Shown: in pieces, positions 2,626 to 55,312 of the stretch
Layout: each line of letters begins with the position of its first letter
How positions within the stretch are numbered: the first letter of the stretch is position 1
Source: an uncultured bacterium
Lineage (GTDB): Bacteria > Methylomirabilota > Methylomirabilia > Methylomirabilales > CSP1-5
NCBI GenBank assembly: GCA_964348275.1
Contig: CAYGBT010000004.1
Span: 45,449 to 109,448 of the forward strand
Direction of reading: 5' to 3'
Length of the DNA stretch: 64,000 bases
Notes under the pieces: model-generated
Seen by the model: only the letters and a program-made list of their open reading frames with translations
Told to the model about the DNA's origin: nothing
Database searches by the model: none
Program-made: the position numbers and the translations under genes

Positions 2626-3396
2626 CTATGGGACCGTTCCAAACCGGTACTCCTTTCCCTGCTCCAAGATTTGGCACTCCGGAACAAGCTGCTTGAGTTC
2701 CTCCACGATCTCCGGGGCATACTGGGGCTTCATATGGTACACATACACAGTCGCCTTCAGGCCGGCTTTACCGAGCTCCGCCTTCAGAGCCTGAGGAGTG
2801 AGGTGACCGCTCAGGTCTGCCAGCTGCTGCAACCGATTGGGGAAGGTCGTCCCGATCATGACCGCCCGCAAGCTCGGCACATCCTTTACGGCTCGCCAGA
2901 CCCCCTCCGTCGGACCGGTGTCTCCAAGGTGAAGCATAGCACCAAAATCGCCCTCGACCAGATACCCGACGCTGATCACCGAATGCGACAACCGTAACGG
3001 GGTAACGCGGAAATGGCACAGGGGACTGGTCTTTCCCTCGGGGAGAGCGCGGAAATCGAGGATGGGCACATGGGAATTGGGGATCTCGGTGAAGTCGGGC
3101 CACAACACGTTATTCAACAGCGACCTCTTGAGCCCCTCAAGGATCGGCTCGATACTGTACACAATGATAGGCTGGTCGCGGCGACCAAATACGTTATCCG
3201 CCAGGTGGGCCAGCCCGCGGACGTGATCGAGGTGGGAGTGCGTCAAGAGAATAGCCTCGATCCGTGACTGGGCAGGGATCTCGAGGACCGCCGTCACCGA
3301 CCCAGCATCGATGAGCAGCGTGTCATCGAGGAGGAAGCTCGAGAGGTGATACCGTGGGGCCTCGCCGCCAAAGCATCCAAGGACGCGGTACCTCAT
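2626..3396 (-). CDS. Metallo-beta-lactamase-fold hydrolase, class-II 3',5'-cyclic-nucleotide phosphodiesterase-like
   Basis: MRYRVLGCFGGE...LLIDAGS...THSHLDHVRGL (HxHxDH metal motif). The layout is recognised from memory of the class-II cNMP phosphodiesterase family. ATGA overlap with the HD-GYP gene. Confidence 0.55.
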   Translation of the reverse strand: MRYRVLGCFGGEAPRYHLSSFLLDDTLLIDAGSVTAVLEIPAQSRIEAILLTHSHLDHVRGLAHLADNVFGRRDQPIIVYSIEPILEGLKRSLLNNVLWPDFTEIPNSHVPILDFRALPEGKTSPLCHFRVTPLRLSHSVISVGYLVEGDFGAMLHLGDTGPTEGVWRAVKDVPSLRAVMIGTTFPNRLQQLADLSGHLTPQALKAELGKAGLKATVYVYHMKPQYAPEIVEELKQLVPECQILEQGKEYRFGTVP

Positions 3397-5999: not shown

Positions 6000-6087
6000 G
6001 TTCACGGTTGATGGTTCACGGTTCACAGCTACCCATTCGGAACCCTCCCGTCTATCAACTGTGCACCGTGAGCTGTCACCTATCACC
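6000..6087. repeat. Heptamer-array hairpin element H1 (trpB/trpA junction)
   Basis: Left arm GTTCACG GTTGATG GTTCACG GTTCACA GC (6000-6029). Right arm TATCAAC TGTGCAC CGTGAGC TGTCACC TATCACC (6053-6087) is the imperfect reverse complement. The right arm overlaps the trpB stop codon. Confidence 0.75.
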
Positions 6088-10458: not shown

Positions 10459-10584
10459 GTTCATGGGTCAGGCTTCATAGTTCAGAATCGATGGTTGACG
10501 GTTCACCGCTCTCTGTCGAGACGTTGCGTATCACGTTGTAACCGTTCTAGGTTCTCCATGAACCATGAACTATGAACTATGAAC
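10459..10584. repeat. Heptamer-array hairpin element H4 (trpE/trpG junction)
   Basis: Left arm is 7 heptamers: GTTCATG GGTCAGG CTTCATA GTTCAGA ATCGATG GTTGACG GTTCACC (10459-10507). Right arm CATGAAC CATGAAC TATGAAC TATGAAC (10557-10584) contains the trpE stop and its last codons. Further GTTCAC/GTGAAC units continue to ~10622 inside trpE. Confidence 0.75.
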
Positions 10585-12108
10585 CGCATCGTCGGTGAGC
10601 GGTTCACGGTCCACGGGTGAACTTTCGAGGCCTCTCTCGGCCATCTCGATGGCCCGAAGCATCCCCGCGGCCTTGTTCAGGGTCTCTTGATACTCCCGCT
10701 CCGGGTCCGAGTCAGCCACAATTCCAGCTCCTGCCTGAATCCATGCCCGCTCTTTGGTGAAAAGGACGGTCCGAATAGTGATGCAGGTATCCATATTGCC
10801 AGAGAAGCTGAGGTAGCCGACCGCGCCTGCATAAGGGCCCCGTTTGGCCGGCTCCAGCTCTTCGATGATTTCCATCGCCCTGATCTTCGGAGCCCCGCTC
10901 ACCGTCCCGGCCGGAAACGAAGCACGGAGCAGGTCAAAGGCGTCGAGCCCTTGCTGGAGACGACCCCGAACATTCGACACGATGTGCATGACGTGGGAGT
11001 ATCGCTCGATCACCATCAGCTCGTTGACCTCCACGCTTCCCGGTACGGCGACGCGACCGACATCATTCCGTCCAAGATCAACAAGCATGATATGCTCCGC
11101 CCGCTCCTTCGGATCCTCCAAAAGCTCGGCGGCCAGCGCCTGGTCTTCAGACTCGTGACGGCCTCGAGGCCTGGTCCCGGCGATGGGGCGTAAGTCGATC
11201 TGTCCCTCTTCCAAGCGCACTAAAACCTCAGGAGAACTCCCCGCTACTGATAGATCTCCCAGGCGGAGGAAGTACATGTACGGAGATGGGTTAATGATGC
11301 GCAGGGCACGGTAGACGTCAAAGGGCTGAGCGCCCGTCTTGACCTCGAGCCGCTGCGAAAGCACCGCCTGGATAATGTCTCCTGCCGCCACATATTCCTT
11401 GCACTTCAACACTGCCCCACAGAAGCCATCATGGGAAAAGGTCGACCTCGTCTCTAGCGTGCGGGGCGAGAGTGGAGCGAGCAACGGCCGATCAAGCGGT
11501 TTCCGGAGATCGGCAACCAATGCCTCGATCTTCGACAGAGCATGATCATACGCGGCCTCGAGTGTGCTGGCTGCGGTGTCAGGGACAAAGGCATTCGATA
11601 CCACCTGGATCCGCTGACTCAGGTTGTCGAAAATGAGCAGCGTATCCGTAAGCAGGAATACGGCATCGGGGAGCTCCATGTCGTCATCGGTCAGATCTGG
11701 AAGGGTTTCGAAAAAACGAACGGCATCATAGGCCAGATACCCTACCATGCCGCCGAAAAAGCGCGGCAGGCCGTCTACCTTGACGGGCCGATAGACGCTG
11801 AGGGCCTCCTTGACCAGATCGAGCGGATCAGTGATCGTTCGCGTCTCAACTTGCAGCCCCGACCGCAGGAGCTCCGCCTGCCCCTCCTTGGTCCGAATCA
11901 CCAAGAAGGGATTGCGCCCCAGGAAGCTGTATCGGGCCCATTTTTCCCCTCCTTCGACGCTTTCCAGGAGGAAAGCGGTTTCCCCTCCCCCAATCTTCAG
12001 GAAGGCCGATACGGGGGTCTCGATATCAGCGAGGACCTCGCGGTAGACTGGGATCAGGTTACCGAGGCGAGCCTTTGCTTTGAATTCATTTCGAGACGGG
12101 TAATACAT
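10570..12108 (-). CDS. trpE: Anthranilate synthase component I
   Basis: ...LLESVEGGE...GAPKIRAMEIIEELE...GAGIVADSDPE... Start set to ATG 12108 (MYYPSRNEF) with GGGAG 8 nt upstream; the ORF-track start at 12123 is a TTG. Confidence 0.92.
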   Translation of the reverse strand: MYYPSRNEFKAKARLGNLIPVYREVLADIETPVSAFLKIGGGETAFLLESVEGGEKWARYSFLGRNPFLVIRTKEGQAELLRSGLQVETRTITDPLDLVKEALSVYRPVKVDGLPRFFGGMVGYLAYDAVRFFETLPDLTDDDMELPDAVFLLTDTLLIFDNLSQRIQVVSNAFVPDTAASTLEAAYDHALSKIEALVADLRKPLDRPLLAPLSPRTLETRSTFSHDGFCGAVLKCKEYVAAGDIIQAVLSQRLEVKTGAQPFDVYRALRIINPSPYMYFLRLGDLSVAGSSPEVLVRLEEGQIDLRPIAGTRPRGRHESEDQALAAELLEDPKERAEHIMLVDLGRNDVGRVAVPGSVEVNELMVIERYSHVMHIVSNVRGRLQQGLDAFDLLRASFPAGTVSGAPKIRAMEIIEELEPAKRGPYAGAVGYLSFSGNMDTCITIRTVLFTKERAWIQAGAGIVADSDPEREYQETLNKAAGMLRAIEMAERGLESSPVDREPLTDDAVHSS

Positions 12109-29359: not shown

Positions 29360-29818
29360 TTAGCGATTGCCACCTGGACCCATAACACGATTGAGGCGGG
29401 TGTAATCGAAGGTGTCAACCGTCGCAAAGAAGTAGGGCACCTCAAACGCCGCAGACTCCGGCGAGTCCGAACCGTGGACCGCATTGCGCTCAATCCCCGT
29501 GCCAAGATCCCGCCGGATGGTCCCCGGAGACGCCTGAGCGGGGTCCGTCGCCCCCATGATGGCGCGGACAGTTGAAATCGCCCCCTCACCCTCCAAAACC
29601 ATGACCACCGATGGCCCGGAACTCATGAAGACAGTCAAGCTGTCGAAAAACGGTCGTGTCCGGTGGACGTGATAAAACCCCTCCGCCCTCCGCTTATCCA
29701 GATAGACCATTTTGAGGCCACAGATCCGAAGGCCTGCCTCCTCGAAACGGCGAATGACTTCTCCGATCCTACCGGCGGCCACGGCATCCGGTTTCACAAT
29801 GGCGAGTGTTCGCTCCAT
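29360..29818 (-). CDS. ndk: Nucleoside diphosphate kinase
   Basis: [13 protein letters not shown]...[12 protein letters not shown]... Start moved to ATG 29818; the 44-codon upstream extension passes through the hairpin at 29840-29868. Confidence 0.92.
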
Positions 29819-29839
29819 GCCTGCCCCCTGTCTTGAAAC

Positions 29840-29868
29840 AAAGACCACCTGGAACACAGGTGGTCTTT
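29840..29868 (-). terminator. Strong hairpin (12-bp stem, 5-nt loop) with U-rich tails; terminator-like
   Basis: AAAGACCACCTG-GAACA-CAGGTGGTCTTT. On the minus strand it is followed by GUUUCAAG, on the plus strand by UGUCUCG. It lies ~160 nt after the sucD stop and only ~20 nt before the ndk ATG. Confidence 0.5.
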
Positions 29869-29922: not shown

Positions 29923-30030
29923 TCAGTGCCGTTCCAACTATTTTTGCCAACGGTCTCGCTGTACTCGCTCAAGACCCTTGCAACAAGGCAGGCCGCTCAA
30001 ATTCGGCTTATCAAGTTAGAACGGTACTAG
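29923..30030. mobile_element. 108-bp MITE-like element, copy E1 (16-bp terminal inverted repeats)
   Basis: TCAGTGCCGTTCCAAC ...76 nt... GTTAGAACGGTACTAG. The reverse complement aligns ungapped with copy E2 (53805-53912): same length, 49/76 internal positions identical by hand count. The right terminus contains the sucD stop codon. Confidence 0.7.
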
Positions 30031-30902
30031 CGACCCCGAAGGGCCGCTTCCACCCTGACCCCCATCTCGGCCGGAGACCGGCAGACGTGAATCCCTGCCA
30101 CCTCCATCGCTTTAACCTTTTCAGCTGCGGTTCCTTTCCCCCCTGCGATGATCGCACCCGCATGTCCCATCCGCCGGCCCGGGGGAGCCGTCATTCCTGC
30201 CACATACCCAACGACCGGCTTGTCCATGTGGGTGTTAACGAACGCCGCCGCTTCTTCCTCCGCAGTCCCACCAATCTCTCCAATCAGAAGAATGGCTTCT
30301 GTCCCCGGATCTTCCTGGAAAAGACGAAGGCAATCCACAAAGCTCGTTCCAATAATCGGATCGCCACCAATTCCAACACAGGTGGATTGTCCGATCCCGC
30401 GCTGAGTCAGCTGTCCTACTGCTTCATAAGTCAAGGTGCCACTTCGAGAAACTACACCGACTGGTCCAGGCATGTGGATGTGGCCGGGCATGATCCCCAC
30501 TTTGGCCTTACCGGGGGAAATCACGCCCGGACAGTTGGGACCGATTAAACGTAAGGCCTGCCCCTGCAGACACCGCGATACCTTTACCATATCCAGTGCG
30601 GGAATTCCCTCGGTAATACACACGATCACGCCAATGCCAGCATCGGCCGCCTCGAGAATGGCGTCGGCGGCAAAACCAGGCGGAACAAAGATCAGGGAGG
30701 TATTCGCCCCGGCCTCCTTGACCGCATGGGTCACAGTATTGAAAACGGGGATTCCCTCGTGGAGCATTCCCCCCTTGCCAGGAGTGACCCCCGCGACTAC
30801 CTTCGTCCCATACTCCACACACCCCCTGGCGTGAAAACTCCCCTCCTTCCCCGTAATCCCCTGGACGACCACCCGCGTCTGCTCGTCGACTAAGATGCTC
30901 AT
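30027..30902 (-). CDS. sucD: Succinyl-CoA ligase subunit alpha
   Basis: [24 protein letters not shown]...MGHAGAI... Start set to ATG 30902; the upstream [10 protein letters not shown] extension is read out of the heptamer repeat. Confidence 0.93.
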
Positions 30903-30919: not shown

Positions 30920-31003
30920 GTTCACGGTTCACCGTTCACAGTTCACAGACGGACCCGGTAGGAACTGCCTCATACCGTGAACCGTGAACTGTCAACTGTG
31001 AAC
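30920..31003. repeat. Heptamer-array hairpin element H5 (sucC/sucD junction)
   Basis: Left arm GTTCACG GTTCACC GTTCACA GTTCACA G (30920-30948), 26-nt loop, right arm CCGTGAAC CGTGAAC TGTCAAC TGTGAAC (30975-31003). 23/28 positions are complementary by hand count. The right arm carries the sucC stop and its last 3 codons. Confidence 0.8.
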
Positions 31004-32161
31004 TCCTTTGGCGGTTTGGGCGGCCAACTCCGCGGCATCAGCCATCGTTTCGGCATTCACAAAGTTCAATCCTGATTCCTTCAGCATTTGCCTCCCTAGC
31101 TCCACGTTGGTTCCTTCCATCCGAATCACGATGGGGAGAGTGACACCCAGCGCCGTGACAGCCTTGATGACCCCCTCCGCCAACCGGTCACACCGCAAGA
31201 TGCCTCCGAAGATGTTGATCAGGACGACTTTGACGTTCCGGTCCGAGATTAAAATACGGAAGGCGTTCTCGATCTGCTCGGCGCTGGCGCCGCCCCCCAC
31301 ATCCAAGAAGTTAGCTGGTTCGCCCCCAGCCAACTTAATAATGTCCATGGTGGCCATGGCCAGACCAGCCCCGTTGACCATACACCCCACGTTGCCGTCC
31401 AGCTTAATGTAGCTCAAGTCGTACTTTGACGCCTCAACCTCCAGGGGAGACTCCTCGTCCACGTCGCGGAGCGCCAGGACTTCGGTGTGTCGGGAGGTCG
31501 CGTTGTCGTCGAAAGTCATTTTCGCATCCAGGGCGAGCAGGCGGCCATCCCCTGTAATCACCAGCGGGTTAATCTCGGCTAGGGAGCAGTCCTTTGTCTC
31601 AAAGGCGCGGTACAGTCTTATGAGGAAATCGGCCACCCCCTTGAGCGTGTCCCCTGTGACGCCAAGCCCGAACCCCAGCTTGCGGGTGTGGAAACCTTGG
31701 ACGCCCGTGGCCGGATCCACGTGCACCCGTGTGATAGCCTCCGGCCTGGTCAGGGCCACCTCCTCAATGTCCATCCCGCCAGCACTGGAGGCCATAATCA
31801 CTGGCAGGCCGACCGAGCGGTCAATCACGATCCCGAGGTACAGCTCCTGGCGGATGTCCATGGCCTCCTCGACCAGTACGCGCTTCACGCGCTGGCCTTC
31901 CGGCCCAGTCTGATGCGTCCTCAGCATCATCCCCAGGATTTGAGATGCAACCTGCTCTGCCTCATCCGGAGACTTCGCCAGTTTGACGCCGCCCCCCTTG
32001 CCTCGGCCGCCAGCATGGATCTGTGCCTTGACTACCACGGTCCCACCGAGCTCCCGTGCGACGGCTAGAGCCTCAGCTGGCGTTTCGACCACGCGCCCCC
32101 GCGGGACTGGGACCCCAAACTCCGCCAGAATTGCCTTGGCCTGATACTCGTGAATCTTCAT
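30992..32161 (-). CDS. sucC: Succinyl-CoA ligase subunit beta
   Basis: [20 protein letters not shown]... ATP-grasp domain ...NIFGGI... Confidence 0.94.
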
Positions 32162-41374: not shown

Positions 41375-42249
41375 CGAAGTTGTTTGCGTACCTCCTTGGC
41401 CCGCTGAAACTCCTGCATCAGGCGAGTCCCATCCTGCCTCCGAATCATCTCCTCAATCTGCTCGAGAACCTTCCGGAACCTTGCGATGGCCTCCAGTACC
41501 TCTCCGCGATTTTCAATCAGGATATCACGCCACATGACGGGATGAGAGGACGCAATCCGAGTGAAATCGCGAAGCCCACCAGCACTAAACCTCAAAAGAT
41601 CCTCCCCCCCGTCTGCCAGGTTCGCGATGGTTCCGATGAGCGCGTAGGCCACAACATGCGGCAGATGACTCACCAGGGCGAAGATCTGATCGTGTCGGAA
41701 CGGATCCATCAGGACCACGTGAGATCCTACCCTTTCCCATAGGCGAATGACGTGTTTGAGCGCCTCCTCTGGGGTCCGGGAAGTCGGCGTGAGAACACAC
41801 AGGCTTCCATGAAAGAGCCCCGCCGAGGCAGCGTCGGGGCCGGAGCGCTCATTCCCGGCGATTGGATGTGAAGGAACGTAGGATCGGCCGGGAGGGATTT
41901 CTGCCTCCACCTGGGCGACGAGGTCTCCTTTCACACTTCCGACGTCAGTGATGATACATCCCGGCCCGAGATAGGGTCCGATGGCGTGAACCACTTCTGC
42001 CATGGCCCCGATCGGAACCGCTACCACGACAAGGTCGGCCCCTTCTACCCCTGCGGGAAGATCGCCCACTTGGTCGACGAGGCCCAGGGCGAGAGCCTGG
42101 TTCAGATGGGTTCGGTCCGCATCCAGCCCGATCACGCGAGTGGCAATCCCGCCCCGGCAGGCCTGAGCCAGACTCCCCCCGATCAGCCCCACACCAATCA
42201 CTACCATCCGCTCGAACAGCGGCTCTGCCTTTGCTGGATCATGGTTCAT
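41371..42249 (-). CDS. tyrA: Prephenate dehydrogenase
   Basis: ...MVVIGVGLIGGSLA... Rossmann fold plus a PDH domain. The start codon ATGAACC lies inside heptamer array H6. Confidence 0.88.
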   Translation of the reverse strand: MNHDPAKAEPLFERMVVIGVGLIGGSLAQACRGGIATRVIGLDADRTHLNQALALGLVDQVGDLPAGVEGADLVVVAVPIGAMAEVVHAIGPYLGPGCIITDVGSVKGDLVAQVEAEIPPGRSYVPSHPIAGNERSGPDAASAGLFHGSLCVLTPTSRTPEEALKHVIRLWERVGSHVVLMDPFRHDQIFALVSHLPHVVAYALIGTIANLADGGEDLLRFSAGGLRDFTRIASSHPVMWRDILIENRGEVLEAIARFRKVLEQIEEMIRRQDGTRLMQEFQRAKEVRKQLR

Positions 42250-42279
42250 GGTTCAAAGTTCACGGCAGTCAAACTTTCG
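42237..42279. repeat. Heptamer array H6 (aroF/tyrA junction; partial element)
   Basis: GATCATG GTTCATG GTTCAAA GTTCACG, then a short hairpin CAAAGTTCAC-GGCA-GTCAAACTTTG. There is no long opposite arm. A 10-bp palindrome ATTTCGAAAT follows. Confidence 0.55.
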
Positions 42280-49277: not shown

Positions 49278-51323
49278 TTATCCTCGCGAGGATCCCCGGT
49301 CTGCGTCAAGACGGCTTCGTATGTCCCGGACCCGTAGGCGGATATCCCGAAACTTCGGCGCCTCACTGTAAATGGCAATCAGGGCCTCGAGCGCTTGTTT
49401 TGCGTTGCCAAGTGCCTCATAGGCTGTCGCCAGATCGTAAAGGACACCCCACCGCTCATCAGTGCCCCCCTCTGTCGCAGCAAGCCCCTTGAGCAATTCC
49501 TCGACCGACCGCTCAGGCTCACCCTTCGCCAGAAAGCAAAGGCCTAAAAGGCTCGCGCATCGCACCCGATAGGTGGCATCGTTCGCGGCTAGTCGAAATT
49601 GCTCGATGGCCTTATCGTAGAGCTCCAAATCTTTATAGGCGAGTCCCAAATTGTAGCGGGTCTCATAGTCGGTCACTTCCAACTGATTGCGAATCCCTTG
49701 ATCGAGCTGGTGGAGCATTTTCTGCACCTGTGGATCGAGATCCGACGGCACGGGGACCTCTTCCGGGCTAAGCTCCTGGTTCAACTCACCGGCGAGGTCC
49801 ACGAATTCTCCCTGGGCAGCTCCTGCCTCAGCCACGCGAAAAATTGAGGTCTGCTTCACGTCCGCTGAAGGAATTTCCTCCTTCCCTGATGCTTCCTCCA
49901 ACCGCTCAATTATTGCCAAGTGCTGCTTGGCCAGCGGATGCTCTGGATCCTGCTGGAGAATCCCATGCAAGATGGCTCGGGCCTCTTGTATCATCCCTTG
50001 TTGCAGAAAAAACCTCGCCTCCTGCAGCTGCTCTTCCAGCGCTTGTGGCCCGGCGAGTTCCACCCGCTCTGATGGCTGCTCCGTTTGCATAGCCATCTCC
50101 TCAGATCCTTCCACGGGATCTAATTCGATGACTGCCGGCTCCGTTTCCTCACCAGCTTGGGCCTCCTCGGCAAAGGAGATATACCTCCGCTCCATCATCT
50201 CCTCCGCGGCCCTCAGCCGTTCGGTCTCTTCGTCAGCCCGTTTTGAGGGGAGGTGCTTGAGGTCTTTGTCATCAAGGGATACCGCCCCTTCGGGCTCTGC
50301 ATCAAACCATCCTCCGAGTTCTTCGTGCAGTTCCAAGGTCGGTGAATCTTGTTCCATAGCTGATGACGCTGGCTCAAAAGCTGGTGTCTTTGCCTCAGAA
50401 GCCGGAGAGATTGTTTCGAGCGCGGGGGACGTTTCCTCGAGGACCGGAGACACTTCCTCGATCGCCGGGGACACTTCTTCGAGGGCCGGGGATAGTTCCT
50501 CAACGGCAGGGGAAATTTCCTCCAGGGTCAGTGTGGAATTTTGTTCCACAGAAGGTCCTGAGAAAATCTCAACGGGGGAAGCCTGCTCCGCGATTTTTCC
50601 TCCCGGATCCGCCTGTTCTCCCTCCCCAGGGAACGCCGCCGCCAGTACCTCGTCGCCCCTCGCCTCTGCCTCAGCGGGGTCGAGGAATCGGAGCGCATCT
50701 GCGAAGCTTGCCGCTTCGGCCGCCCGACCTTGGGACTGCAAAGCCGCCACCGCCCCTTCGTAAATCTGCCGCGCCGCCTCGGCCTGCCCTTCCATCACAA
50801 GGCGCTCTCCCAGGGCATTGAGCTTGGCTAACGACTCACCGACCCTTTCGGGCCTTACCAGGATCCCCACGACCTTGGACAAGGTCGGGCGATGTCCTGG
50901 GTCCATTAGGATAATTTTTTCATATATTTCTAGCGTCCGGGACACATCCCCCTTCTTGAGGTAAGTATCGGCAAGTCCATGGAACTGAAGCTTCGCTTCC
51001 GCAACCAGGCCTTGGTCGGCGTACAACTCGGCGCAAGCGAGCGAGGCGTCCGCATTCGATAGATCGAGCCTGAGCACCTTCTTGTAAACCGCAATAGCCC
51101 GCTCATAAAAGCCATCCGCCCGGTAGACGTCTGCGAGGCGCATGAAGTACGCGATAGCCTCCGACCTATTCCCGATCCGGGCGCAGAGGTCCCCAAGGGC
51201 GTTCAGCACATTACAGTTACTCGGATCGGCCCCCAGGATCGCCTGATATTCAGCGATAGCCCGATCGAGTTTTCCCTGTTGGACGTAGTTTAAGGCAGTT
51301 TGTAGCTGCTTTCGCTTCGCCAT
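49278..51323 (-). CDS. TPR-repeat protein with central acidic heptapeptide-repeat linker
   Basis: 681 aa. TPR-like helices at both ends, with an acidic Glu/Ser/Pro-rich middle. Confidence 0.75.
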   Translation of the reverse strand: MAKRKQLQTALNYVQQGKLDRAIAEYQAILGADPSNCNVLNALGDLCARIGNRSEAIAYFMRLADVYRADGFYERAIAVYKKVLRLDLSNADASLACAELYADQGLVAEAKLQFHGLADTYLKKGDVSRTLEIYEKIILMDPGHRPTLSKVVGILVRPERVGESLAKLNALGERLVMEGQAEAARQIYEGAVAALQSQGRAAEAASFADALRFLDPAEAEARGDEVLAAAFPGEGEQADPGGKIAEQASPVEIFSGPSVEQNSTLTLEEISPAVEELSPALEEVSPAIEEVSPVLEETSPALETISPASEAKTPAFEPASSAMEQDSPTLELHEELGGWFDAEPEGAVSLDDKDLKHLPSKRADEETERLRAAEEMMERRYISFAEEAQAGEETEPAVIELDPVEGSEEMAMQTEQPSERVELAGPQALEEQLQEARFFLQQGMIQEARAILHGILQQDPEHPLAKQHLAIIERLEEASGKEEIPSADVKQTSIFRVAEAGAAQGEFVDLAGELNQELSPEEVPVPSDLDPQVQKMLHQLDQGIRNQLEVTDYETRYNLGLAYKDLELYDKAIEQFRLAANDATYRVRCASLLGLCFLAKGEPERSVEELLKGLAATEGGTDERWGVLYDLATAYEALGNAKQALEALIAIYSEAPKFRDIRLRVRDIRSRLDADRGSSRG
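50334..50522 (-). repeat. 9 x 21-nt in-frame tandem repeat (heptapeptide EExSPAx)
   Basis: EEISPAV EELSPAL EEVSPAI EEVSPVL EETSPAL ETISPAS EAKTPAF EPASSAM EQDSPTL, read from the minus strand. Confidence 0.85.
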
Positions 51324-52289: not shown

Positions 52290-53147
52290 TTACTCTTTAT
52301 CGATGTCTCGATGCCGAATCCCCACTTCCCGGTTCTCAGCCTGAAACTGGCCGACCAGATACTCCGCAGCCGCCACCGACCGGTGCCGCCCACCCGTACA
52401 GCCGAGGGCAATAGTGAGATAAGCTCGTCCCTCTTCAACGTAAAAGGGAAAAGCAAATCGAAGAAATCCCCAGAGCTGCTCTAGATAAGATCCGGCCCGG
52501 GGATCGTCCAGAAGAAACTTCGCAACCTCCGGATCTTGCCCAGTAAGTGGCCGCAATTCTTCCTGAAAATGAGGATTGGGGAGACATCGGAGATCGATGA
52601 CCAGATCGGCATCGGGAGGTAGACCGTGCCGGTACCCAAAAGAAACAATAGTAATTGTCGTTTTGCTCCCCGGTCGGTGATCGTGAAAAGCGCTCAGTAA
52701 CAGCCTTCGAAGGTCATGAACAGTCAGGTCACTTGTATCGAGAACCATGTCCGCCTCGCTCTTGAGCTGTGCCATCCGCTTTCGCTCAAGGCTGATCCCC
52801 TGGAGAATCGAGCCCTGCGCAGCAAGCGGATGGGGCCGACGGCTCTCGCTGAAGCGCCTGAGCAAGACCTGATCTTCCGCCTCCAGAAAAATCACACGGA
52901 CGACGTGTCCACGCTGCCTCAGGGTTGCCAAGACCTCTTCAAGGGGGCCGAGAAACTCTCCCTCCCGAACGTCGATGACGAAGGCGACTCGTTCAATGCG
53001 CGGTTCCGAATGGGCACAGAGATCCGCGACGGTGGGAATCAGGGAAGCCGGGAGATTGTCAACGCAAAATACGCCAAGGTCTTCCAGGGTCTTGATCGCC
53101 TGGCTCTTACCAGCCCCCGACATCCCCGTAACAATGATGAACTCCAT
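52290..53147 (-). CDS. rapZ: RNase adapter protein RapZ (P-loop ATPase YvcJ family)
   Basis: MEFIIVTGMSGAGKSQAIKTLEDLG..CVDNLP... ...CTGGRHRSV... Confidence 0.92.
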   Translation of the reverse strand: MEFIIVTGMSGAGKSQAIKTLEDLGVFCVDNLPASLIPTVADLCAHSEPRIERVAFVIDVREGEFLGPLEEVLATLRQRGHVVRVIFLEAEDQVLLRRFSESRRPHPLAAQGSILQGISLERKRMAQLKSEADMVLDTSDLTVHDLRRLLLSAFHDHRPGSKTTITIVSFGYRHGLPPDADLVIDLRCLPNPHFQEELRPLTGQDPEVAKFLLDDPRAGSYLEQLWGFLRFAFPFYVEEGRAYLTIALGCTGGRHRSVAAAEYLVGQFQAENREVGIRHRDIDKE

Positions 53148-53150
53148 AGC

Positions 53151-53225
53151 TTCACGGATGACGGTTCACAGTCCACAGACACGAGGGAACCGAGACGAAC
53201 GGGAATCGTCAACAGTGAACGATAA
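53151..53225. repeat. Heptamer-array hairpin element H7 (hpf/rapZ junction)
   Basis: CTTCACG GATGACG GTTCACA GTCCACA ... CGTCAAC AGTGAAC GAT. Imperfect inverted arrays. The left arm abuts the rapZ ATG with no SD. Confidence 0.6.
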
Positions 53226-53804: not shown

Positions 53805-53912
53805 CTAGTGCCGTTCCAACCTGATAAGCCCAATGAGACCTGTGCGTCTTGTTACAACAGGCACGAAAGCGTCCAGTGAGAAAATTGGCACAAGTCGTTG
53901 GAACGGCATTAG
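53805..53912. mobile_element. 108-bp MITE-like element, copy E2
   Basis: CTAGTGCCGTTCCAAC ...76 nt... GTTGGAACGGCATTAG; the termini are 15/16 complementary. Flanked by TA/TA if the termini are taken as GTGCC.../...GGCAT. The right terminus contains the rpoN stop codon. Opposite orientation to E1. Confidence 0.7.
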
Positions 53913-55312
53913 TATCTCCGGCGCCGGCTAGAGGAGGGAATCTTGAGCTGTCCCCGATACTTGGCCACGGTTCGGCGGGCGATCTCAATTCCTTGTTGTC
54001 TCAAGATTTCGACGACCTTTTGATCTGAAAGGGGCTTGCCTGTGTCTTCACCGGTGAGGAGCTTTCGGACCAACTCTTTAACCGTGAGGGAAGAAACCGC
54101 CTCACCATCCACCGCCTGAACCCCACGATGGAAAAAATACTTGAGTTCAAAGAGACCCTCGGGCGTATGTACGTACTTGTTGGTGGTGACCCGACTCACG
54201 GTGGACTCATGCATATTGATATCTTCAGCCACCTCCTTGAGGGTCAGCGGCCGCATATGGGTGATTCCCTTATCCAAGAACTCCCGTTGGAACTTCACAA
54301 TCGATTCAGTCACCTTGAACAGAGTGCGTTGCCGCTGCTCGATGGAGCGAATGAGCCACAGTGCAGATCGCATCTTCCCCTCGACGTATTCCCGCGTCTC
54401 CTTGGAACTCGATCGCCCCTTACTTAAGAGCCCCCGGTAGTACGAGCTGATCCGGAGGCGAGGGAGCCCATCTTCGTTGAGGACGACCACGAAGCGATCA
54501 TCGATCTTCAAGATATACACGTCGGGAGTGATATAGCGGGGTTCTTCGGTACTGAACGTGCGGCCCGGCTTTGGTTCTAAGGAACAGATAAGGAGAACCG
54601 CATCTTGAATGGCCTTGATAGGGACTTTCAGTTTATCCGCAATCCGTGTGAGATAGCGCCCTTCGAGGTCCACGAGGTGGTCAGCAACAAGTGTGCGCGC
54701 CAGGGCAATCTCTGACCCGTCCTTGATGCTATCGAGCTGAAGGAGAAGACACTCCCGGAGGTCTCGTGCAGCCACCCCGACAGGATCAAAGCTCTGGACG
54801 AGTCCAAGAGCGTGCTCGATTACATCAAGTTCCGTCGAGGTCTCTCCCCTCAGGTCTTCCAGGGGAACGTTCAGATATCCATTTTCATCGAGATTCCCAA
54901 TGATCTCGGTGGCCCAACGAATAACAATGGGATCCGAGGTGGAGAGGTGAAGCTGAAAGAGGAGATGGTCCGACAGCGAGCGTGGTCTGGTCAGGCGTTC
55001 CTCGGGGGACCAGGTTTCGACTTCCTCCCGCGGAAACTCCCGGCGATAGTCCGAGGCATCCTGCAGATAGCTCTCCCAGTCAAAGTCTGAGAGACGGTCA
55101 TCGGCCTGTTCCCCCTCTTCCTCACCCGACGTCTCTGTGGAAAGTCGCGGCTCTTCCATAACCTCTTCGTCCAGGACGGGATTTTCCTCCAACTCCTGCC
55201 GCACCGCCTGGATCAGCTCCAACCGCGACAGCTGCAACAGACCGATAGCCTGCTGCAACGATTGGGTCATGATCATTCGCTGGGTCTGGCGAAGGCTGAG
55301 GCGTAGTTCCAT
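53909..55312 (-). CDS. rpoN: RNA polymerase sigma-54 factor
   Basis: 467 aa. N-terminal Gln/Leu-rich region I, an acidic region, and a C-terminal HTH plus RpoN box (ARRTVAKYR). Confidence 0.94.
   Translation of the reverse strand: MELRLSLRQTQRMIMTQSLQQAIGLLQLSRLELIQAVRQELEENPVLDEEVMEEPRLSTETSGEEEGEQADDRLSDFDWESYLQDASDYRREFPREEVETWSPEERLTRPRSLSDHLLFQLHLSTSDPIVIRWATEIIGNLDENGYLNVPLEDLRGETSTELDVIEHALGLVQSFDPVGVAARDLRECLLLQLDSIKDGSEIALARTLVADHLVDLEGRYLTRIADKLKVPIKAIQDAVLLICSLEPKPGRTFSTEEPRYITPDVYILKIDDRFVVVLNEDGLPRLRISSYYRGLLSKGRSSSKETREYVEGKMRSALWLIRSIEQRQRTLFKVTESIVKFQREFLDKGITHMRPLTLKEVAEDINMHESTVSRVTTNKYVHTPEGLFELKYFFHRGVQAVDGEAVSSLTVKELVRKLLTGEDTGKPLSDQKVVEILRQQGIEIARRTVAKYRGQLKIPSSSRRRRY

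Follow-up and report, generated by a model that had tools for sequence, protein, structure and literature searches.

Two 108-bp elements at the sucD and rpoN stop codons of an uncultured Methylomirabilota bacterium as probable old copies of a CTAG-flanked MITE family

Two 108-bp sequences with terminal inverted repeats lie exactly at the stop codons of sucD and rpoN in a 64,000-nt stretch of DNA from an uncultured bacterium of the Methylomirabilota (here the window), and this arrangement raises the question of whether they are copies of a mobile element or a structured RNA retained at gene ends. A sequence-only reading had proposed a MITE-like element with a TA target duplication of the IS630/Tc1-mariner type, and had looked to further copies, empty sites in relatives and a full-length IS with the same termini on the one side, and to compensatory base changes on the other, to separate the two. 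The results described here indicate that E1 and E2 are both old copies of a non-autonomous DNA transposon (MITE) and belong to the same subfamily; taken as a whole this is the best explanation, with a probability that we put at about 0.85.

E1 (29923-30030) and E2 (53805-53912) are 108 bp apiece and mutually inverted. When E1 is reverse-complemented, it can be aligned with E2 along all 108 bp without a gap; 76/108 positions agree, among them 49/76 of the interior, the same number as in an earlier count made by hand. Random 108-mers of the window agree with E2 at 27 +/- 4.5 positions. The 13-mer GTGCCGTTCCAAC occurs eight times in the window with up to two mismatches (1.6 expected), and four of the eight are the termini of E1 and E2. 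Both sucD and rpoN are on the minus strand, and the opposite orientation of the two copies relative to these genes was borne out. The sucD-like ORF (30027..30902, minus) ends in a TAG stop at 30029-30027, within the right CTAG of E1, and the rpoN ORF (53909..55312, minus) in a TAA stop at 53911-53909, within the right TTAG of E2, such that each copy does have one terminus at a stop codon, inside its terminal 4-mer. The downstream genes ndk and hpf start at 29818 and 53758, respectively. The features of the two loci are as follows.

29923..30030, no strand: E1, probable MITE copy including both duplicated target copies, 108 bp, A-side end toward sucD; net insertion of 104 bp relative to the empty sites in L120 and L125/L128
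29927..30026, no strand: E1 element proper under the 4-bp duplication model, 100 bp, TGCC...GGTA (from family consensus and boundaries)
29923..29926, no strand: E1 distal target copy, TCAG on the plus strand (CTGA on the minus), degenerate from CTAA/CTAG (compared with the empty site GGC TAA CCAAG in L120)
30027..30030, no strand: E1 proximal target copy CTAG, holding the sucD stop TAG (30029-30027, minus; from the ORF and empty-site comparison)
29927..29938, plus: E1 terminal inverted repeat, left arm, TGCCGTTCCAAC (motif scan and copy alignment)
30015..30026, minus: E1 terminal inverted repeat, right arm, TACCGTTCTAAC, two transitions away from the consensus (motif scan and copy alignment)
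53805..53912, no strand: E2, probable MITE copy including both target copies, 108 bp, B-side end toward rpoN; site empty in L134-L136, orthologous filled site in L133
53809..53908, no strand: E2 element proper under the 4-bp model, 100 bp, TGCC...GGCA (from family consensus and boundaries)
53805..53808, no strand: E2 distal target copy CTAG, on the hpf side (sequence, with relatives compared)
53909..53912, no strand: E2 proximal target copy, TTAG on the plus strand (CTAA on the minus), holding the rpoN stop TAA (53911-53909, minus; ORF, with relatives compared)
53809..53820, plus: E2 terminal inverted repeat, left arm, TGCCGTTCCAAC (motif scan)
53897..53908, minus: E2 terminal inverted repeat, right arm, TGCCGTTCCAAC (motif scan)
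29833..29865, minus: terminator-like hairpin GACCACCTG-N5-CAGGTGGTC followed by TTTGTTTC, located between E1 and the start codon of ndk; conserved among relatives whether or not they carry the element

The terminator-like hairpin is located 15-45 nt upstream of the ndk start and differs in its loop among the relatives; a simple terminator scan of the window did not list it. Its conservation with and without the element shows that it is older than the E1 insertion, E1 being located upstream of it, in the 3' region of sucD. Judging from this position, the 3' untranslated region of sucCD probably includes E1. With E2 in place the spacer between rpoN and hpf is 150 nt long instead of 49 nt, and the ribosome-binding site of hpf is intact. 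Transcription of the copies as a 3'UTR or intercistronic hairpin, as gene order would predict, is plausible. For both copies a long hairpin is predicted whichever strand is folded (about -41 to -46 kcal/mol, z -3.2 to -3.8), and its stability comes simply from the terminal repeats.

The window contains other repeats. Arrays of three to four heptamers (GTGAACN) occur in short intergenic spacers at 6000-6026, 10474-10616, 30920-30948, 30977-31004, 42235-42263 and 53145-53220, those between sucC and sucD forming an inverted pair, and GTGAACNGTGAAC was found 12 times in the window with at most one mismatch (0.24 expected). These arrays are a second repeat family, unrelated to the MITE. A tandem repeat of 21/42 nt, with 5.1 copies and 75% matches, is present at 50416-50526.

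The nearest named relatives, by SucD and RpoN, are Candidatus Methylomirabilales / NC10 MAGs. In close relatives empty sites were found at the places of both E1 and E2. Between sucD and ndk the empty junction reads '...GGTGGC TAA CCAAGAAAAGG' in L120-L122 (SucD 90% identical; L120 junction TAA|CCAAG) and '...GGTAGA TAG CCAGGAGG' in L125-L132 (SucD 85% identical), while the filled site of the window reads '...GGTCGC TAG[TACC...GGCA]CTGA CCAAGAAGAGG'. The rpoN-hpf junction is empty in L134-L136 (RpoN 87% identical), with 'GGAGATAC TAA TCTCCTTCCGG' and the junction TAA|TCTCC, and filled in the window and in L133 (RpoN 90% identical). At the E1 and E2 sites compared with these relatives the net gain per insertion is 104 bp. 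Between the window and L133 the orthologous E2 copies share 89/108 positions, and the adjoining 300 nt of rpoN share 271/300, thus the element drifts faster than the gene.

Two observations concern the sucD locus in other relatives. In L123 (SucD 88% identical) a different insert of ~125 nt is present exactly at the E1 site (2876-3010); it begins with CTAGTCC, contains GATAAACC, has no recognisable terminal repeats and its fold is not unusual (z -1.4), and it could be either a decayed E1 orthologue or an independent insertion. Many SucD homologues (P0024-P0120) have 313-345 aa with K/R/A/P-rich C-terminal tails, while the window protein, of 291 aa, is without a tail. These C-terminal extensions were considered as possible read-through into elements, but they proved to be basic, low-complexity tails instead.

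The family was delineated by scanning species-representative genomes with the pattern GCCGTTCYAAC-N60-90-GTTRGAACGG, which is anchored in 10-11 terminal-repeat bases per end, and at least 118 loci with the same ends were found. From ~121 copies among the matches listed the consensus CTAG-TGCCGTTCCAAC-TTGTT-nnGnC-nAAT ... T-n-GGC-nn-AAATA-GTTGGAACGGCA-CTAG was derived. At each end the outermost six bases (CTAG plus TG/CA) were not part of the pattern, yet they are ~87-97% conserved in the matches listed, and in the same ~121 copies conservation drops sharply outside CTAG on both sides. The ends consist of 12-bp, near-perfect terminal inverted repeats, 5'-TGCCGTTCCAAC ... GTTGGAACGGCA-3', followed by imperfect subterminal boxes that differ by end (A side AAC-TTGTT-nnGnC-nAAT; B side AAC-TATTT-nnGCC-nA). 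Between them is an unconstrained core of ~45-46 nt, with a median identity between copies of 54-57% in gapped global alignments. The modal length of the copies among the matches listed is 108 bp, and in the properties by which a MITE is recognised they are below 300 bp, have no coding capacity and carry a hypervariable core.

All hosts of the matches listed are MAGs from soil, peat or groundwater, and the taxon labels given here are the wording of the MAG record titles. They include Acidobacteriota/Terriglobia, Methylomirabilota/Rokubacteria, Gemmatimonadota, Beta- and Gammaproteobacteria and 'delta proteobacterium', as well as Nitrospirota, Binatia, Tectomicrobia, Chloroflexota, Planctomycetota/Planctomycetales and two actinobacterial bins. 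Several copies sit on contigs of 0.7-3.7 Mb, hence mis-binning is not the cause of the host spread. Bacterial MITE families are usually described within one genus. Retention of the same termini across many phylum labels implies either that the family has spread horizontally more than once or that its partner transposase is very widespread. A search of the literature for the terminal string, or for MITEs in these taxa, disclosed no description of the family, which is not proof that none exists. The variable cores of L004 936-1033 and L048 5018-5115 are ~91% identical, though the MAG labels are Streptomycetaceae and Gammaproteobacteria, respectively, and either cross-phylum transfer or mislabelled bins would account for this likeness. 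Another copy (L137 13195-13298) directly adjoins the stop of a 362-aa ORF on a very GC-rich contig of 20.9 kb that is labelled 'viral' in IMG/VR.

Variable cores that are 96-98% identical were found at unrelated loci of one MAG, each with perfect CTAG flanks. In addition, a metagenome scan with a 21-mer specific for E1/E2 yielded four more copies of the E1 subfamily, at other loci and 81-89% identical to E1. Nested insertions of a family member within a family member were seen at L021 4081-4293, L035 4620-4835 and L043 2626-2800, consistent with each element regenerating CTAG targets. At L085 5640-5790 two elements abut via one shared CTAG, and this pair is followed by four tandem copies of a 25-nt terminal repeat plus subterminal box (AATGCCGTTCCAACnTGTTnCGGCY).

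Some features of the copies would equally be expected if the family were a structured RNA or cis-regulatory hairpin conserved at gene ends, for instance to stabilise or process 3' ends. Both window copies are predicted as stable hairpins on either strand, many copies lie just past stop codons in spacers taken as transcribed, and between the window and L133 the terminal repeats of E2 have changed at 3/32 positions, compared with 16/76 in the interior. Such an RNA does not account for empty sites with a duplicated target, nor for near-identical copies at unrelated loci and copies nested in one another. The copies are randomly oriented with respect to the gene that they abut (18:13, p=0.47). Apart from the terminal repeat and a handful of subterminal positions, the left and right halves are no more complementary than those of shuffled sequences, and there is no interior covariation; positions 11-12 are even systematically mismatched (z -4.4 and -4.8), because the two ends differ. 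No match to Rfam was found in the window at the gathering threshold, and a permissive search with E1 and E2 returned only noise at E<=10. Given the random orientation and the interior without covariation, no selection for an RNA role is seen, and together with the lack of an Rfam match and of conserved pairing in the variable interior this identifies the family as a MITE rather than an RNA motif. The reading as a structured RNA or cis-regulatory hairpin is largely refuted, and we regard it as extremely improbable. The empty sites, the many further copies, the recent copies within one genome and the nested insertions strongly support the MITE that the sequence-only reading had proposed, and the covariation that would have led to its reclassification as RNA does not exceed chance in the interior.

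An integron attC-like site, suggested by AAC...GTT cores with an unpaired spacer, was also considered and rejected, as the copies are single, dispersed and nested, show target duplication and empty sites, and are without cassettes.

CTAG is present on both sides of 73 of the ~121 copies among the matches listed. At such a target, duplication of 2 bp (C-TA-[G...C]-TA-G) and of 4 bp (CTAG-[TG...CA]-CTAG) gives identical junctions, so that individual copies may have arisen by the former. This was the proposal of the sequence-only reading, namely a MITE of IS630/Tc1-mariner type with ends GTGCC...GGCAC that duplicates only the TA of CTAG, the terminal G rebuilding TAG. Copies with flanks other than CTAG distinguish the two models. 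Matching non-CTAG 4-mers occur on both sides of 10 of 121 copies, where shuffling predicts 0.91 (p<0.0002). Four of them vary at the outer positions (TTAG/TTAG twice and CTAA/CTAA twice, at independent loci; 0.45 expected, p=0.0004), and six vary at the centre (CCAG twice, CTGG twice, CTCG and CGAG). Matches of the direct-repeat type are significant at each of the four positions (p = 0.048, 0.0004, <0.0002 and 0.0008), and there is no inverted-type flank correlation among the 121 copies. From this co-variation the whole 4-mer behaves as a duplicated target and the element proper is 100 bp, TG...CA. A 6-bp duplication would pair position -7, which is variable, with a position within the right end that is a conserved A, and is excluded on this ground.

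A few junctions point the other way. From the empty E1 site (CTAA in L120) the present junctions can be derived with one later mutation if 2 bp were duplicated and with two if 4 bp were. L088, which has CTAG on the left, CTAA on the right and a core 98% identical to that of L001, fits 2 bp better, no mutation being needed. There is also precedent for TA duplication: a passage of PMC2170065, citing Tenzen & Ohtsubo 1991, reports that IS630 prefers and duplicates TA within CTAG, ends of 30 bp suffice for transposition of ISY100 (PMC2170065), and RUP, a 107-bp MITE, is attributed to IS630-Spn1 (PMC2229807). However, the IS630 family is described as inserting almost exclusively at TA (PMC2170065), so that the six matching non-TA centres would be unusual for it. 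Duplication of TA alone does not predict the co-variation of the outer positions, and neither an IS630-family transposase (Mos1 probe) nor a matching inverted repeat was found in the loci. The target duplication thus fits 4 bp of CTAG better than TA, and the assignment to IS630/Tc1-mariner, whose cognate IS was not found, is not established. We consider a 4-bp duplication probable, and a MITE of IS630/Tc1-mariner type that duplicates only TA unlikely.

Single-strand transposition, as of a palindromic element of the IS200/IS605 type or a REPIN moved by RAYT, would likewise leave CTAG on either side and lengthen the site by 104 bp, if the element inserted 3' of a CTAG without duplication and brought its own CTAG at the other end; formation of a hairpin and the extragenic location agree with such a process as well. 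It does not predict matching non-consensus 4-mers on both sides, and the family has one long terminal inverted repeat rather than separate subterminal hairpins at each end. Absence of target duplication is a mark of REP/REPIN sequences, and here a duplication is present. This route is accordingly very unlikely.

The position of the copies at stop codons was evaluated over open frames, in GC-rich DNA (the family genomes have roughly 59-60% G+C), with two control frames and with vacant CTAG sites taken from the same loci. At 68/244 ends among the matches listed, an open frame of 150 or more codons comes to its stop; the control frames gave 12 and 24 such ends. For frames of 250 or more codons the corresponding numbers are 51 against 5 and 10. 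The stop at the 68 ends is TAG in 63 and TAA in 5. Counted by element, 62/122 of those listed abut such an open frame, compared with 22% of 495 vacant CTAG sites. CTAG itself is ~4.6-fold depleted in the window (51 occurrences, 234 expected from composition).

A mechanism that would produce this pattern can be outlined. A transposase acting in trans, presumably of the DDE type, would insert the element into the palindrome CTAG and, less often, into CTAA, TTAG, CCAG/CTGG or CTCG/CGAG, with duplication of 4 bp of target and hence a net gain of 104 bp. TAG or TAA is part of this target, and CTAG is depleted in the genome. After the duplication the gene would still end in an intact stop codon, so that an insertion where the stop reads C-TAG or C-TAA would be harmless to the protein and survive, and intragenic insertions would be purged by what is presumed to be a selective filter. 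As each insertion would regenerate CTAG at both element ends, abutting and nested copies could follow. The exact location of copies at stop codons would then be due to a target that holds TAG or TAA, to the depletion of CTAG and to the duplicate that keeps the stop intact. Target availability plus purifying selection is the simplest account of the stop-codon siting, the selective step being surmised from the distribution of the copies. If so, the family is a clean, quantifiable example of how a CTAG target together with its duplication makes stop codons tolerated landing sites.

The partner transposase was sought in ~1 Mb of loci, in a plasmid collection and in IMG/VR, and no autonomous element or full-length IS with these termini was found in them. 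Pairs of repeats 0.3-4 kb apart in all the loci were only chance or host-gene cases, with no transposase in between, and solo ends turned out to be half copies and not IS ends. BLASTN of a 30-nt end against the plasmids gave no match, IMG/VR contained one MITE copy and 15 chance 16-mer matches, and phmmer with the Mos1 transposase against all ORFs of the loci detected no IS630-like ORF. An IS481-family transposase (Pfam rve, rve_3, LZ_Tnp_IS481) is encoded 130 nt from a half copy in L159 and was rejected as the partner, having its own TGTAC...GTACA ends on nine contigs, in eight of which, those other than L159, MITE ends are absent; this element is an unrelated neighbour of the MITE. It is ~1.3 kb long (L159 5270-6600 and L161-L168), encodes a transposase of 375-383 aa, carries repeated ACATAGGT boxes and is common on Logan contigs of 1.2-1.5 kb; where enough flank is available, a CCCTCCCC-N-GGGGAGGG palindrome surrounds or adjoins the copies. 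The MITE ends have the heptamer CCGTTCC in common with a mutated form of a terminal repeat of plant mariner-like type, and presumably with Stowaway ends, but seven nucleotides are too few to serve as evidence.

A more speculative and rather doubtful suggestion is that a hitherto undescribed transposase of very broad host range, which might be of the TG...CA/rve type and cut CTAG with a stagger of 4 bp, has spread across phyla in soil and groundwater, and that its CTAG specificity evolved as a 'safe-harbour' strategy targeting stop codons. If this were true, the tight length limit of ~108 bp around an unconstrained core would reflect a mechanistic requirement for size or for a hairpin, and not descent from a deleted IS. 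In practical terms, copies of the family break short-read assemblies and give spurious ORF extensions in MAG annotation, and as insertion markers they can be used to tell strains apart within uncultured populations of NC10 and Acidobacteria.

Among known insertion sequences, IS5 has the target YTAR and a 4-bp duplication (PMC5009759), and its (C/T)TA(A/G) matches the CTAG and the matched CTAA and TTAG pairs of the family. The variants CCAG/CTGG and CTCG/CGAG lie outside YTAR, and no IS5-family transposase was found near any copy. Ends of the IS5 group start with GGAAGG or GA.. and are not known to start with TGCC. IS481 resembles the family in its preference for CTAG and its TG...CA-type termini; its target is NCTAGN, its ends are TGT, and the stop codon of its transposase is supplied by the TAG of the target (PMC2516522). 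However, it duplicates 6 bp (NCTAGN), while the positions outside CTAG are not repeated in the family. IS630/Tc1-mariner elements, for which ends of ~24-30 bp suffice for mobility, duplicate 2 bp, almost always TA (PMC2170065), and share the preference for CTAG insofar as the passage citing Tenzen & Ohtsubo 1991 reports it, but in the family the outer positions and the non-TA centres co-vary as direct repeats.

The closest likeness is to RUP, the repeat unit of pneumococcus, and to further bacterial MITEs like Correia/NEMIS, small non-coding elements which are alike in being ~107 bp, in their terminal inverted repeats, target duplication and many intergenic copies, in the hairpin that extends from end to end and in being presumed to be moved in trans by the transposase of an IS (PMC2229807). 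RUP and Correia are described as A+T-rich, with TA at their ends, and as each confined to one genus, whereas the family described here has CTAG flanks that act as a 4-bp duplication and occurs under many phylum labels; the terminal sequence of RUP is unrelated to that of the family, and the core of the latter is hypervariable. This is a MITE of a familiar kind, closest in size and behaviour to RUP and Correia, and distinctive in its CTAG duplication, its TG...CA ends, its hypervariable core held at a tight length and its spread over many phylum labels.
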